IMG/VR virus record: IMGVR_UViG_2911420635_000004
Coordinates: 1 to 64,000 of that record
DNA: 64,000 bases
From: a virus
Lineage: Duplodnaviria; Caudoviricetes
Reading direction: 5' to 3' (one strand)
Part shown: piece by piece, positions 7,147 to 26,353 of the stretch
Numbering within the stretch: the stretch's first letter is position 1
Layout of the letters: the number at the start of each line of letters is the position of its first letter
Translations under genes and position numbers: made by a program
Notes under the pieces: generated by a model
Databases searched by the model: none
The model's input: only the letters and a program-made list of their open reading frames with translations
Told to the model about the DNA's origin: nothing

Positions 7147-8619
7147 TCACTTGGCCTTGTGGCCGCCTATCTGTTGATTTCTTTCTCTCATCGTAGCGCC
7201 GTCCAGATAGTTGGTTCCTTTTAGTACAGCGTTCTTGCCGAACTTCTTCTTGAGACCCAGCATCGCATTCTGTAGCTTTTTCTCTTTTTCCAGTTTGGTT
7301 GTGTCCGTGAATAGGTCAACTTGGAAGAATCCCTCATCTTTGACCACACGGTTGGCGGCTATTGTGATCCGTCTTACCGTCAGGGTTTTATCCGCTATTC
7401 TCTCAAACAGCTCAGTTGTGGCAGAGATCAGGATGCTTCCGAGGTTGGTCGGATTATCCAGTTTTGTGCTGCCATGAGCACCCTTCGGAACAGTGCGGCC
7501 ATAGTGGTCGATATGCACCGGACCTCTGTACTTTCCGCTGTCACAGTTTTCACGGTCATAGCACACATCCAGTGTCAGGCTGTCCGTAACCAGTCCTTTA
7601 TCTGTTAATTGTAATACTAAGCTGTCAGCCATCTCCATGACAATGATTCTGGCTTTGTCATATGGGTAAGGGCAGGAGAGTACCTGTCCCTCGGAGATAC
7701 TGTTGGTGCTGGGGCGGTAGGCTTTGATTTCTTTCATGCCGCAGGGTTCCAGACCCCAAGCATGATCAATCAGAAGTTCAGCATCAACACCGAATTCCTT
7801 ATATAAGATATTCTGATTGACGGTGCTGAAATAGGCCAGCTCGCCCATCGTATGGATGCCGTGCTTTTCTAGCCGTTTGACGGTGCCGGGACCAGTCATC
7901 CAGAAGTCTGTGAGCGGCTTGTGATCCCAGAGAAGATAGCGGAAGCTCTCTTCATCCAGTTCAGCGATGCGGACTCCGTCCTTGTCAGGCGCAGCGTGTT
8001 TGGCAGTGATGTCCATTGCCAGCTTCGCCAGATATAGATTGGTACCAATCCCGGCGGTGGCAGTGATGCCAGTCGTATAAAGCACTTCCCGGATCATTGT
8101 CATGGCAAGGTCGTGTGCTGTCATATTATAGTGGGACAGGTACGAGGTGGCATCGATGAACACCTCGTCGATGGAATATACCACAATATCCTCTGGTGCG
8201 ATGTATTTCAGATAGATGCCATAAATCTGCCGCGACACTTTTTCATAATATGCCATCCGGGGCGGCGCAACAAGGTAAGAGAGTTCGAGTGACGGGTCGG
8301 CGGCAAGCGATAAGGAATCATAGGAAGCAGAGGAGAAGGATGGCTTACCGTCCTTATACACAGCTTTTCTTAATCGTACCGCTTCCCTTAACCGATTCGC
8401 ATTGACCTCTTTGACCTTCTGCACGACCTCGAATAGTCTGGCACGCCCCGGAATGCCATAGGCTTTCAGGGAAGGGGATACAGCGAGGCAGATGGTTTTC
8501 TCAGTTCGGGAGGAATCTGCCACGACCAAATTTGTGGTAAGCGGGTCGAGGTGTCGAGCGGCGCATTCCGCACTCGCGTAATAGCTTTTAAGATCTATCG
8601 CAAGGTATGTGCGTTGCAT
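7147..8619 (-). CDS. Y-family (UmuC/ImpB-like) translesion DNA polymerase
   Basis: YLAIDLKSYYASAEC, YSIDEVFID, GIGTNLYLAKLA motifs; C-terminal KKKFGKNAV. Confidence 0.92.
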   Translation of the reverse strand: MQRTYLAIDLKSYYASAECAARHLDPLTTNLVVADSSRTEKTICLAVSPSLKAYGIPGRARLFEVVQKVKEVNANRLREAVRLRKAVYKDGKPSFSSASYDSLSLAADPSLELSYLVAPPRMAYYEKVSRQIYGIYLKYIAPEDIVVYSIDEVFIDATSYLSHYNMTAHDLAMTMIREVLYTTGITATAGIGTNLYLAKLAMDITAKHAAPDKDGVRIAELDEESFRYLLWDHKPLTDFWMTGPGTVKRLEKHGIHTMGELAYFSTVNQNILYKEFGVDAELLIDHAWGLEPCGMKEIKAYRPSTNSISEGQVLSCPYPYDKARIIVMEMADSLVLQLTDKGLVTDSLTLDVCYDRENCDSGKYRGPVHIDHYGRTVPKGAHGSTKLDNPTNLGSILISATTELFERIADKTLTVRRITIAANRVVKDEGFFQVDLFTDTTKLEKEKKLQNAMLGLKKKFGKNAVLKGTNYLDGATMRERNQQIGGHKAK

Positions 8620-12831: not shown

Positions 12832-13205
12832 GAAGTGTGGCTTATCTGCCATCTGCAAGAGCCTTTCCAACTGGTAGACTATAAACAGTTCAAGGGACAA
12901 GCCCACAGAGCCAATACGAAAGTTCCTGTCGGCAGTACCTCGGACAAATAAAAAATATCGAAGCCCGATTCTAGAGCAGGCGAAGGATACCATAAGCGAT
13001 CTGACAGCACAGCAGAGTTATTTGCTGGAGCTGGAGGACTGAACATGGGATCATTCTAACCTTCTTTAGAACCGGGCTTTTTGCGCCTTTTGACCGCAGA
13101 GTCTGTCCGTTTCATGAGGATGCCGCGAATCTGCCATGTATGTTCTTCAAAGCCAGAGCCTTCAGTATCCTTCCCTCCCAGAAGTCCGGGGGAAAGGACA
13201 AAACA

Positions 13206-13961
13206 ATGATGAACATGATGACTGGAGCAGTAGCAATCAACGGTGGAGTAGGTGTGATGGAGGTTCGCCAGCCGCAGGTGGCAGTCAGCCAGATGGTAGC
13301 AAGCGCGGCACAGGCTGCAGAGCAGGTGGCTCTGAATGCACACATCACCCTGCGTGAGCTGAAAGGAATGATCGACACTGTGGTGGAGAAGAAGCTCCCG
13401 ACTTTCAAGACCCTCATGGAGATGAACCCGGTGGCAGTAGCCCGCACGAGCGTGAACGGTGCAAAGCTGACGGCCTATGAAAACGGCTATGCAGTTTACG
13501 AGGTGGACAGTGCCCACACTGTCATGGTCGTGGATCGCTGCGGAGATTACCGCTACGATTTCACCGATGGCACACACCAGATCGTGCCGGCAGAGACTTT
13601 CGAGGATGCCGAGTGGAGTCTGCGCCTTCTGATGGAAGGGGAGAAGCGTATGGAACACAACTTCAGTAAGACTGCTGCAAAGTTTGAGCAGGTGCCGCTG
13701 GAGTGCGATGGCTCTGACTGGTCCGCTTTTATTATGGTGGACTTTTGGGATGAAGACAATGCCGAGATGCTGGCAGACAAGGAACTGCGCCGTCTGTATG
13801 CTGCCATGAGCAAGCTGACCGAGCGTCAGATGGAAGTGGTCCAGCTCTACTTCTATAAAGGTATGACCCAGCAGGAGATTGCAGAGGAAATTGGTATCGG
13901 CCGCCGTTCTGTTGGAAACTGCCTGGAAGGTGCTTTGAAAAAAATCAGAAAAAACTTTTAA
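13206..13961 (+). CDS. Sigma-70 region 4 domain protein (phage sigma-like regulator)
   Basis: C-terminal LTERQMEVVQLYFYKGMTQQEIAEEIGIGRRSV. Confidence 0.8.
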   Translation: MMNMMTGAVAINGGVGVMEVRQPQVAVSQMVASAAQAAEQVALNAHITLRELKGMIDTVVEKKLPTFKTLMEMNPVAVARTSVNGAKLTAYENGYAVYEVDSAHTVMVVDRCGDYRYDFTDGTHQIVPAETFEDAEWSLRLLMEGEKRMEHNFSKTAAKFEQVPLECDGSDWSAFIMVDFWDEDNAEMLADKELRRLYAAMSKLTERQMEVVQLYFYKGMTQQEIAEEIGIGRRSVGNCLEGALKKIRKNF

Positions 13962-21347: not shown

Positions 21348-21554
21348 ATGGAAGATGTCATTCACTGGGTTACAGAACACAAAGAGGAGAACCCTCCGAA
21401 CAGGAAAGTCAGCCACAGCCACCCGGACCCGACTGCAGATGAAGCCATCAGTAATGTGATCCGGGAAGAAGGCAAGAAAAAACACAAGAAAAGAAAACGC
21501 CCGCGGATCGGTGTTTGGAGAGCGAAGGAGGCAAAGCCGGATGAGGGAAAGTGA
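21348..21554 (+). CDS. Small basic hypothetical protein
   Basis: 68-aa ORF coupled to its neighbours; RBS gaggtga. Confidence 0.55.
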   Translation: MEDVIHWVTEHKEENPPNRKVSHSHPDPTADEAISNVIREEGKKKHKKRKRPRIGVWRAKEAKPDEGK

Positions 21555-21960
21555 AGTAGAAAAGCAGCTTGTAGCTGCGGTGAGGGCTGTCGGAGGACAG
21601 GCCCTCAAATTTACCAGTCAGAGCATGAATGGTGTGCCGGATCGTCTGGTTCTGCTGCTCGGCGGCAAGTGTGCGTTTGTGGAGCTGAAAGCCCCTGGAA
21701 AGCAGATGCGCATCCTTCAGCGAAAGCGCAGACTGCAGCTGGAGACACTGGGCTTTCCGGTGTTCTGTGTTGACCGTTTGGAGCAGATCCGGCCTGCGGT
21801 GGACGCACTCCTGCACTGGACGCCGGGTGAGCCTATCCCACAGGGGATCGGGGCGAAAATCCCGGAGATGCCGGAAGTTACGCTGCCGCAGGGAGATACA
21901 CAAAGCGAGGAGCCGGAAACACAGGCACAGGATGCCGGGGAGGAGGTGATGCCGCTATGA
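21541..21960 (+). CDS. VRR-NUC domain nuclease
   Basis: MRESEVEK..L, GVPDRLVL, FVELKAPG motifs. Confidence 0.9.
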   Translation: MRESEVEKQLVAAVRAVGGQALKFTSQSMNGVPDRLVLLLGGKCAFVELKAPGKQMRILQRKRRLQLETLGFPVFCVDRLEQIRPAVDALLHWTPGEPIPQGIGAKIPEMPEVTLPQGDTQSEEPETQAQDAGEEVMPL

Positions 21961-23339
21961 AGTTCATTCCACACGATTATCAGAGTTACTGCACCGAGTA
22001 TATTAAAACGCACCCGACTGCAGCCCTTTTTCTGGATATGGGCTTGGGTTAAGGAAAGACCGTCATAACCCTTTCTGCAATCAAAGACCTTATGCTTGAG
22101 ACTTTCGAGGTTAACAAGGTTCTCATCATTGCACCGCTGCGTGTTGCCCGTGACACATGGCCGGCAGAGATTGAAAAGTGGGATCACTTAAAAGGGCTGG
22201 ACATTTCCATCATCGTTGGAGATGTCAAGACCCGGATCGCAGCAGTCCACCACCCGGCGATGATCTACATCGTCAATCGGGAGAACATCAAGTGGCTGGT
22301 GGAGTATTACGAGAAAAATGGAATGCGCTGGGATTTTGGCATGGTTGTGATCGATGAGCTGTCATCGTTCAAGAACTATCAGTCCCAGCGTTTTAAGTTC
22401 CTGCGAAAAGTCCGCCCGTTTGTGAAGCGGTGGGTTGGTCTGACCGGCACACCTTCTTCCAACGGCCTTATGGATTTGTGGGCAGAGATTGGGATTCTGG
22501 ATGGCGGGGAGCGCCTTGGAAAGTTTATCGGCCGCTACCGGGAAGCCTACTTTAAGGCTGGGTCGATGAACCCGGCAACAGGAATCGTGTTCCAGTATGT
22601 ACCAAGACAGGGAGCAGAGGAGATGATCTACCAGCGGATCTCTGACATCACGATTTCTATGAAGGCTCTGGATTATCTCAATATGCCGGATTGTGTACCT
22701 ACAAGGTGCGAAGTCGAGATGAACACGCAGGAAAGGGAACTCTACGATATGCTTCGGCAGGATCTTTTGATTCCGCTGAAAGACGGTGACATAGACGCTG
22801 CCAATGCTGCATCACTGACAGGGAAGCTGTTGCAGATGAGCAATGGCGCGGTCTATGACGAGAACGGCAAGGCGAGAGTCATTCACGACCACAAGCTGGA
22901 AGCTCTCGAAGACCTGATCGAAGCCGCCAACGGACAGCCGGTGATGGTAGCTTACTGGTTTAAGCATGACAGGGAGCGTATCATCAACCATCTGTCGAAG
23001 CTGAAGATCAAAGTCCGGGATATCAAGAGCAGTACCGACATCAAGGATTGGAATGCTGGAAACATCCCGGTCGCCCTGATCCATCCTGCATCGGCCGGAC
23101 ATGGCCTGAACATCCAGCAGGGCGGACACATCCTGATCTGGTTTGGGCTGACCTGGTCTTTGGAGTTGTATCAGCAGACCAATGCCCGGCTTTGGCGGCA
23201 GGGACAGACCCATGTGGTGACCATTCACCACATCATCACGAAGAATACCGTGGACGAGGATGTCATGGCGGCATTGGAGCAGAAGGACATGACACAGGAA
23301 AAGCTGATATCTGCCGTTAGAGCACGGCTGGAGGAATAG
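21957..23339 (+). CDS. SNF2-like DEAD/DEAH helicase interrupted by an in-frame TAA (22050-22052) within Walker A
   Basis: ATG 21957 gives MKFIPHDYQ...LFLDMGLG*GKTVITL, in frame with ORF 22092-23339 (VIDELS, LTGTP, HGLNIQ, QTNARLWRQGQ). Confidence 0.85.
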
Positions 23340-25629: not shown

Positions 25630-25702
25630 ACATGTTATGCCGTCACGGATTCGGATTCCGGACGGCTGTTTTTGTATCAGGAGAGAAGAGGTGAAACCCA
25701 GA

Positions 25703-26353
25703 ATGGGGAGAAAGAAAAGCAACGCACGGATTCTGCCGCGTGGCAGGAAGATCCATGTGAACAAGTACATCAACAAGCGTGGCTGCACCAAGCATAAAAG
25801 CGCCGCCACGCATAACCACAGCACCGAAAAGCAGCAGGAAAGCAGCCACACAACTTATGACAGCTTCCCCGCTTACAACTGGCCGACGACCAGAATCCCG
25901 AAGCAGTATGAGATCTGGTTTGCAGAGCTTGGTAACCATTATGGCACCTGTGTGCAGAGTGGGAACCGTCCGGTGCTGATCCTGACAAACGATATTGCGA
26001 ACCGTTATTCGCAGACCTTCACAGTTATTCCGCTTACGAGCAAGATGAAAAAGCTCGACCTGCCAACACATATCGTGCTGACAGAAGCACATTGTGAGAT
26101 GCTCAGAGCGGAACGACTGGAGGATTCCATTTTGCTGGTCGAGCAGATCACAACGATCGACCAGTCGGCACTGTTTGGACGCCTTTGCAGGGTGATCTCT
26201 GCTGAGAAAAAGCAGGAGATTGAACAGGCTGTGGCAAGGCAATTTGATATGCACAGTACTAAGAAAAACAAACAAAATACAGACGAAAATGCTGCGCGCG
26301 GCAGCAATGCCAATTACGGCAGCAACTCTGTACACAGCAGGAAGGAGGTCTAA
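25703..26353 (+). CDS. PemK/MazF-family endoribonuclease with basic N-terminal extension
   Basis: EIWFAELG, VQSGNRPVLILTND, TVIPLTS, LPTHI, LVEQITTID motifs. Confidence 0.85.
   Translation: MGRKKSNARILPRGRKIHVNKYINKRGCTKHKSAATHNHSTEKQQESSHTTYDSFPAYNWPTTRIPKQYEIWFAELGNHYGTCVQSGNRPVLILTNDIANRYSQTFTVIPLTSKMKKLDLPTHIVLTEAHCEMLRAERLEDSILLVEQITTIDQSALFGRLCRVISAEKKQEIEQAVARQFDMHSTKKNKQNTDENAARGSNANYGSNSVHSRKEV

Follow-up and report, generated by a model that had tools for sequence, protein, structure and literature searches.

How can a helicase be made from a gene that has a stop codon in the middle of its nucleotide-binding loop? This question is raised by a SNF2-like helicase gene in the stretch of DNA analysed here (64,000 nucleotides (nt), in the following the window), which comprises the first 64 kb of the 85-kb IMG/VR provirus IMGVR_UViG_2911420635_000004 (Caudoviricetes). 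An earlier reading of the letters alone (the original prediction) had noticed that GGT-TAA-GGA-AAG-ACC at 22047-22061 splits the Walker A motif (P-loop) of the helicase, that removal of 6 nt restores DMGLGKT, and that the first in-frame ATG further downstream is at 22092; all of this is seen in the sequence. It had also proposed that ribosomes take off at GGT and land on GGA, a reading that is now supported by conserved matched inserts and by out-of-frame gaps that need a hop or a shift. Comparison with relatives suggests that the gene probably encodes one full-length SNF2 helicase by means of a programmed short translational bypass ('stop-hop').

The gene starts with 31 codons that are homologous to the N-terminus of intact relatives (N-part), is interrupted by the stop, and continues behind the interruption as the C-part (Table 1). 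A Pfam search with 22053-23339 detected both the SNF2 N-lobe (PF00176, SNF2-rel_dom, E = 4.8e-15) and the Helicase_C lobe (PF00271, E = 1.8e-5), as in a SNF2/SF2 helicase of the type found in phage replication modules. It is the sole SNF2 gene of the provirus, and a PF00176 search gave one match with one internal TAA. No single open reading frame (ORF) contains a contiguous motif I (GxGKT), since the TAA separates DMGLG from GKT; the motif is contiguous (DMGLGKT) only with the 6 nt skipped. The sole clear initiation signal of the helicase is the strong Shine-Dalgarno (SD) sequence GAGGAGGTGA, and no comparable combination of SD and start codon lies ahead of the C-part. The bare pattern of a codon, a stop and a similar codon with an open frame behind it is not diagnostic: a window-wide scan for codon-stop-matched codon interruptions returned more than 130 chance matches, and no second credible interruption of this type. 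The helicase site is more than chance because of its position in the P-loop and the comparative data. An intein, an intron or an insertion sequence at the gap was considered and rejected, as the insert of just 6 nt is too short for splicing or a mobile element.

The stretch is present in sequencing runs from 13 studies. The 6 nt were found in contigs of run X1 and of the independent bovine run X12, and a metatranscriptome contig (X15, 21962-22500), which stems from an RNA library that may contain DNA, bridges the site and keeps them. Since independent DNA contigs and X15 retain the 6 nt, an assembly artefact and removal at the RNA level are disfavoured; the evidence from these runs consists of assembled contigs, with rare gap-less variants and transcript levels beyond their reach.

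An insert private to this assembly would have spoken against the original prediction, but the gap turned out to be widespread, occurring in independent assemblies, in IMG/VR loci, in bacterial genomes and in three named phages. A consolidated census of 354 unique sequence contexts from IMG/VR phages, bacterial genomes and named phages comprises 117 unique alleles gapped at the second Gly codon and 237 intact ones; these counts are not phylogenetically independent, and the sample was partly chosen by the gap pattern or by queries with gapped genes. Among 80 IMG/VR relatives of the C-part, the allele states GGT-TAA-GGA, GGT-TAA-GGC, GGC-TGA-GGA, a 4-nt gap and a 5-nt gap at the first Gly were observed, along with intact alleles at 96-98% amino acid identity. 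Three further samples, drawn by C-part similarity only, contained 32/80, about 14/80 and 8/80 gapped loci. For the IMG/VR loci retrieved by C-part similarity, the gapped fraction was 94/318, a value inflated by the queries, which were themselves gapped genes, and gapped alleles occur in 18 of 60 clusters (85% identity). With ATGGGCTTGGGTT and a stop-like triplet as the search pattern, at least 115 stretches matched. Of 80 listed loci that were examined, 60 proved to be helicases; their gaps measure 4 to 10 nt, and K-T/S and an open frame come next in each. The C-part is open in all 60 of these helicase loci that no contig end truncates at the junction, and it is 415-435 amino acids long wherever the contig allows.

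A gap is also present in 25 of 80 prophage copies from bacterial genomes that represent their species. Gapped isolates include Faecalibacterium intestinale (99% identical to the window), Clostridium fessum, Succiniclasticum ruminis, Phosphitispora, Heliorestis acidaminivorans and Anaerobacillus alkalilacustris. The named phages with a gap are PV036419 and PV036450 (L002 and L003, the two NatCom genomes of 'Ca. Heliusvirales') and MF172979 (Erysipelothrix phage phi1605; L531). The two NatCom phages share about 65% DNA identity, and in both the same 31-codon ORF (96-nt mini-ORF) is annotated before the helicase; the Ruminococcus phage NatCom_38182 has an in-frame 9-nt gap (GGT TGA AAA GGC AAA), the Christensenellales phage NatCom_6392 a 5-nt gap that changes the frame (GGT TGAGC AAG AGC). 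In phi1605 the site reads GGT TAGGA AAG. Public annotation presents gapped helicases as a 5'-truncated HepA or as two or three hypothetical proteins.

Such an internal stop is usually taken to mark a pseudogene: the prophage would be decaying, and the gene would have been inactivated by an insertion or left with the scar of an element that was excised. Indeed, annotators treat these genes as truncated (the phi1605 gene is a 5'-truncated 'DNA helicase HepA'). Ratios of non-synonymous to synonymous change (omega) were calculated by the Nei-Gojobori method over pairs with a proportion of synonymous differences (pS) of 0.05 < pS < 0.6. For gapped genes (471 pairs) omega was 0.034 in the N-part and 0.053 in the C-part, for intact genes (66 pairs) 0.159 and 0.060, respectively; the N-part values are biased slightly downward by the parsing, which required a few N-part motif residues. 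Thus, strong purifying selection acts on both halves, selection downstream of the gap is not relaxed, and lesions do not accumulate there. As for the check that the original prediction had named, the GGN-stop-GGN insert is conserved, and dN/dS is below 1 to either side of it. With omega of 0.03-0.05 on both sides, a C-part open in all 60 pattern-selected loci, and a gap conserved across lineages with 46-60% protein identity and recurring in 25/80 species genomes, decay is extremely improbable. A synonymous divergence (dS) of 0.6 moreover excludes that the gapped lineages are recent copies of one another. Both the excision scar and the inactivating insertion, which the original prediction had listed as alternatives, therefore do not fit the long-term maintenance of the gap.

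A tree built from 111 unique proteins places gapped alleles as far out as lineages with 46-52% amino acid identity to the window, and parsimony gave 7 changes between the gapped and the intact state, 28 changes of gap length and 38 changes of the gap string. Because gapped lineages reach this divergence with so many gap changes, the gap is old, labile in sequence and compatible with long-term function.

The anatomy of the gaps is informative on how such a gene could be read. Among the 117 unique gapped alleles, gap lengths are 1 nt (1 allele), 4 nt (16), 5 nt (36), 6 nt (46), 7 nt (13), 8 nt (1), 9 nt (2) and 10 nt (2), so that in 69 the length cannot be divided by three. As take-off codon, 98 alleles have GGT, 18 have GGC and 1 has GGG, and the slow-to-decode codon expected directly 3' of a take-off codon is a stop in 111 of 117 (TGA 47, TAA 39, TAG 25). 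GGC is always followed by TGA (18/18 unique alleles), GGT by TAA, TAG or TGA. All 48 in-frame gaps start with a stop and none with a sense codon, the result of which would be a tolerated insertion of two amino acids. At the other end, GGN forms the last triplet of the gap, right in front of the Lys codon, in 85 of 100 gaps of at least 5 nt. The same holds for 20 of 23 distinct gap strings (chance 1/16; naive binomial p = 1e-21) and for 5/5 strings of at least 8 nt at the second Gly. Matched, non-overlapping take-off and landing codons, as known from bypassing, are thus present, in the window as GGT and GGA.

About ten loci place the putative hop at other codons of the motif, namely the first Gly, Leu or Asp. 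Examples for the first Gly are GGT TAA GGT TTA GGA AAA and GGT TA GGC. At the Leu codon of L325 (CTT TGAGG CTT GGC AAA), take-off and landing codon are both CTT, and at the Asp codon (GAC to GTC) the match is nearly kept. Six unique gapped alleles lack the stop and have TGG, CCG or CGG in the A site, with the GGN landing triplet kept: GGT T GGC AAA with TGG (L111, L123, L421, L422, L424), GGT CC GGA AAG with CCG (L224, L225) and GGT CGGGC AAA with CGG (L526). These alleles may depend on slow sense codons. The allele with the 1-nt gap (L304) reads GGG-T-AAA.

Readthrough of the stop, or a reassigned stop codon, would produce DMGLG-x-GKT with two extra residues. This would suit the window, where the gap is in frame and G-x-GKT still fits GxGKT. 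Orthologous gaps of 1, 4, 5, 7, 8 and 10 nt, on the other hand, cannot be read through, and the lengths that are no multiple of three exclude readthrough and an alternative code for the 69 alleles concerned. All three stops are used, including TAA, which is usually the least leaky and is common here, and the motif of close intact relatives is DMGLGKT without additions. With no tRNA genes, the provirus lacks a suppressor tRNA, and the other genes of the window all read normally under code 11. We therefore judge readthrough to be very improbable.

A short hop could account for the alleles as follows. Ribosomes would start at ATG 21957 and read 31 codons, bringing GGU (Gly31) into the P site and UAA into the A site. 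As the stop is slow to decode, the peptidyl-tRNA-Gly is proposed to un-pair from GGU; the mRNA would slip forward by 6 nt, the tRNA would re-pair with GGA, and decoding would resume at AAG. The product would have the canonical P-loop DMGLGKT, to which no residue is added. Relatives would pass over 1 to 10 nt by the same event, in any frame and with no hairpin involved. One event would thus fit all alleles and always yield DMGLGK[TS], with tRNA-Gly leaving GGY and re-pairing at the next Gly-like triplet. We infer the hop, its efficiency and its product from these comparisons, and a single polypeptide from the selection on both halves.

Table 1. Features of the split helicase gene and its surroundings in the window (positions refer to the 64,000-nt stretch).
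Feature	Position	Strand	Basis or remark
Shine-Dalgarno GAGGAGGTGA	21940..21949	+	serves ATG 21957; read directly from sequence
Helicase N-part	21957..22049	+	31 codons, MKFIPHDYQ...FLDMGLG; H.YQ motif and first half of motif I
Conserved 5' context of gapped alleles, GAT ATG GGC TTG GGT	22035..22049	+	per-cluster codon comparison; GAT 22035-37, ATG 22038-40, GGC 22041-43, TTG 22044-46
Proposed take-off codon GGT (Gly31)	22047..22049	+	GGT in 98/117 unique gapped alleles
In-frame TAA stop, proposed A-site occupant at take-off	22050..22052	+	
6-nt coding gap TAAGGA (stop and landing codon)	22050..22055	+	clean 6-nt deletion in close relatives
Proposed landing codon GGA, matched to take-off codon	22053..22055	+	
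Helicase C-part, from resume codon AAG (KTVITL...) to TAG	22056..23339	+	Pfam, omega; AAG 22056-58 and ACC 22059-61 continue the take-off frame, open to TAG 23337-39 (428 codons)
Upstream gene, 149 amino acids, PHROG 93 'endonuclease'	21511..21960	+	stop overlaps helicase ATG

A split gene offers another explanation: a 31-amino-acid peptide would be made along with a separately initiated C-part (termination-reinitiation), or the C-part alone would be functional. Reinitiation works in any frame, as the observed gaps need, and the gap is SD-like (AAGGA, GAGG). Three elements (L008, L032, L454) keep the C-part, including the GKTV codons with synonymous changes only, while their contigs contain no N-part. 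Against this, the alignment of alleles shows no conserved start codon for the C-part at the gap or downstream of it, and Met is not conserved at the position of the first ATG (22092). Strong selection acts on the N-part, and the matched Gly codons, the CTT-to-CTT case and the stop right after the take-off codon would be left unexplained. From the structure of SF2 helicases, a P-loop cut between GLG and KT would be unlikely to assemble from two chains. Taken together, this makes a split gene quite improbable.

In the three elements lacking the N-part, foreign DNA abuts the helicase, with the joint precisely at the 5' boundary of the gap (L008, 1300-1510; L032, 1300-1510; L454, 2800-3000). The junctions read ..TGCAAC/TGAGGA.. 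and ..TGCGGT/TAAGGC.. (the slash marks the joint). The foreign part that they share is a conserved block, about 190 nt long, with a near-consensus promoter (TTGCAA, 17 nt, TATAAT), a hairpin GGGCTT/AAGCCC and a terminator-like hairpin GCAGTC..GACTGC followed by a T-run; an Rfam search with the block upstream of the G1-type junction gave sub-threshold matches only. Upstream of the block the contigs are unrelated, G1 carrying a large serine recombinase, PARG, an AAA_21/DUF4276 pair and a HEPN_LA2681 protein. The C-part of these elements has an omega of 0.055, and its 13 codons before the first ATG show 6 synonymous and 0 non-synonymous changes. When the N-part was sought elsewhere in G1, G2 and G3 it was not found; one DMGL match lies inside an unrelated ORF. 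In G3 (L088-L090), homology to the window ends at window position 22171, about 120 nt into the C-part. Three called proteins (P0003, P0043, P0001) fuse the helicase to domains of large serine recombinases or tyrosine integrases. The helicase gene seems to be a frequent point of recombination or insertion.

The gapped allele could also represent an 'off' or low state of a switch at the DNA level, the helicase being made from a subpopulation of genomes that have precisely lost the gap (phase variation or reversion), with no need for recoding. Intact alleles with gapped-type codons (GGC TTA GGY) are indeed nested in the gapped clade of the window (L016-L019, L036) and differ by a clean 6-nt deletion, and some 5-nt gaps resemble tandem TTRGG duplications, which could revert by slippage. 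The GLGLGKT encoded in the -1 frame of 5-nt TAGGN alleles is consistent with an origin by such a duplication. Most gaps, however, TAAGGA included, have no flanking repeats longer than 2 nt, and gaps persist through dS above 0.5 while their length and sequence change. A switch would leave the matched landing codon and the obligatory stop without a role. The contigs from independent runs are all gapped, although contigs cannot reveal rare variants. We regard such a switch as unlikely.

Several observations weigh against a hop. A +1 or -1 slip in the P site at a 'shifty stop' would also restore the frame in out-of-frame gaps, adding 1-3 residues. Such a slip would put 1-3 variable residues into the most conserved loop of the protein, and for the in-frame allele of the window the sole alternatives are readthrough or no full-length product. 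About a quarter of the gaps end in AGC, AGT, GAC or GAT, with merely a 2-of-3 match to the Gly anticodon. The hop does not explain why L008, L032 and L454 keep a selected C-part while their contigs have no N-part. No conserved RNA structure was found: RNAalifold across the alleles gave 3 invariant pairs at -0.03 kcal/mol, and the RNA fold of the window is no better than that of shuffled sequence (z = +0.63). Strong stimulators of the gene 60 type are absent here, because conserved RNA structure is lacking. In the E. coli constructs of Weiss et al. from 1987, simple stop-hops are said to have been inefficient. The composition of the census and the nature of the X15 library, both named above, belong to the same side of the balance.

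Local signals were searched for by codon-context tests with one representative per 85% cluster (14 gapped versus 47 intact; Fisher exact test). The first Gly codon is GGC in 13/14 gapped but 9/47 intact clusters (p = 9e-7), and the Leu codon is CTT in 0/14 gapped but 27/47 intact clusters (p = 9e-5). The take-off codon is GGY in 13/14 gapped clusters, and synonymous sites near this 5' context (GAT ATG GGC YTN GGY) vary freely. The local 5' context probably helps the hop. The nascent chain of 31 amino acids is the conserved N-terminus of the helicase, and a stimulatory peptide signal within it would be inseparable from protein function.

To our knowledge, natural bypassing is known in few cases, namely T4 gene 60 and its homologues, three Streptomyces phage terminases and one yeast mitochondrion. 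A related event is the +1 frameshift in prfB, the gene for release factor 2 (RF2), which serves RF2 autoregulation and depends on an upstream SD 3 nt from the shift codon. As proposed for the helicase, the P-site tRNA re-pairs forward with a stop waiting in the A site, and the 1-nt allele L304 is formally such an event. Unlike in prfB, most helicase events do not overlap the take-off codon, and there is no clear SD.

T4 gene 60 has a coding gap of 50 nt; its take-off codon, for Gly, directly precedes a stop, and the landing codon is a matching Gly codon (PMC5009743). The helicase site shares the Gly take-off codon, the directly following stop and the matched Gly landing codon before the resume codon, and it likewise resides in a gene of phage DNA metabolism. 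It differs by a gap of 1-10 nt with a length that varies freely among relatives. The gene 60 gap is linked to a homing endonuclease and protects a DNA site (PMC5009743; bioRxiv 10.1101/2022.08.31.505936); the helicase site has no take-off stem-loop or conserved mRNA structure, no recognisable nascent-peptide signal and no adjacent endonuclease gene linked to the gap.

The terminase bypass of the Streptomyces phage phiHau3/StrepC.1 spans gaps of 7 and 10 nt and has support by mass spectrometry in E. coli after UUA was changed to UAA (PMC10732093). Like the helicase, it involves short non-coding inserts in a phage gene, and its first junction also joins Gly to Lys (...GWG/KD...; PMC10732093). 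There, the A-site codon is the rare sense codon UUA, which is tied to host development, stem-loops and an internal SD are proposed, and three genes are known. By comparison, the helicase has stops in the A site, more than 100 alleles, Bacillota hosts and no conserved structure. Many short inserts are also skipped in the mitochondrial 'byps' of Magnusiomyces capitatus, sometimes with an imperfect match between take-off and landing codon (PMC5009743). These differ in their mitochondrial location, an unassigned A-site codon, the many genes affected and relaxed decoding, whereas the helicase case concerns a single gene and site on bacterial ribosomes. Synthetic stop-hops and +5/+6 hops in E. coli (Weiss et al. 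1987, reviewed in PMC5009743) were engineered constructs; the helicase would be a natural, selected family if the hop is true. Of natural in-frame stop-hopping, the 2016 review stated that 'no occurences are known' (PMC5009743). We found no description of the helicase site in the literature; most subscription journals were outside this search, and a prior report is possible.

Why should a gap be kept in such a place? Of 96 homologues longer than 750 amino acids, 30 have an insertion directly after the Lys of GLGK/T, one codon downstream of the gap. At least 12 of the 30 insertions are elements of about 331-338 amino acids that end in ...THN before the T and resume with T.S.LTA. In many of the 30, Pfam domains of the LAGLIDADG or Hom_end type are present; inteins with homing endonucleases thus insert at this very place in the DNA. 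Two N-terminal types of intein occur, K followed by A/C-x-DD.T.I and K followed by xQPxSEPV, and the intein-bearing proteins include P0006, P0009, P0010, P0012, P0034, P0046, P0055 and P0072. All observed gap positions lie within about 15 nt of the GLGK/T insertion point. The intein-bearing proteins are merely 35-47% identical to the window helicase, and no endonuclease gene specific to gapped or intact alleles was found, the flanks differing between the two states.

By analogy with gene 60, the gap of which protects against the MobA nuclease (bioRxiv 10.1101/2022.08.31.505936), the helicase gap may break a DNA site that is recognised by intein homing endonucleases and may thereby confer immunity to cleavage, while the hop would keep the protein intact. 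Tentatively, and as a possibility that we do not consider the likelier one, this family of Bacillota phage helicases could combine a minimal-signal stop-hop of 1-10 nt with a gap that is kept since it destroys the GLGK/T homing target. Phages and homing elements might then be in an arms race over the DNA, the cost of which falls on translation, and the rapid change in where the gap lies (at the Asp, first Gly, Leu or second Gly codon) and how long it is would be its trace.

In the provirus, host-like genes end near 12 kb, and the helicase belongs to the phage replication module that follows, which comprises a sigma-r4 protein, DUF2800 nuclease, Enc34-type SSB, PolA, DUF932, helicase, MazF-like protein and D5 primase. 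A prophage attachment site within the helicase was rejected for the window, where the helicase lies in the middle of this module and in the gene order usual for the family. The module is headed by a sigma-70 region-4 protein (13140-13961, +). An ORF of 238 amino acids with a PemK/MazF toxin domain (25637-26353, +; E = 1e-20) is located between helicase and D5 primase, and a Y-family (impB/mucB) polymerase gene (7147-8619, -) lies near the presumed border between host and prophage.

If the proposed hop is true, these helicases would be the first large natural family of short stop-hops. More than 100 natural alleles that vary in gap length, stop, landing codon and position would be a ready mutational series for what a ribosome requires to hop, and cultured hosts exist in Faecalibacterium intestinale, Clostridium fessum, Succiniclasticum ruminis, Heliorestis acidaminivorans and Anaerobacillus alkalilacustris, as does the Erysipelothrix phage phi1605. 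Gapped helicases that are now called truncated, split or pseudogenes, in a very common lineage of gut phages, would have to be annotated differently. If the link to inteins holds as well, recoding would serve the defence of conserved DNA sites against selfish nucleases, and would generalise what is known from gene 60 and MobA.

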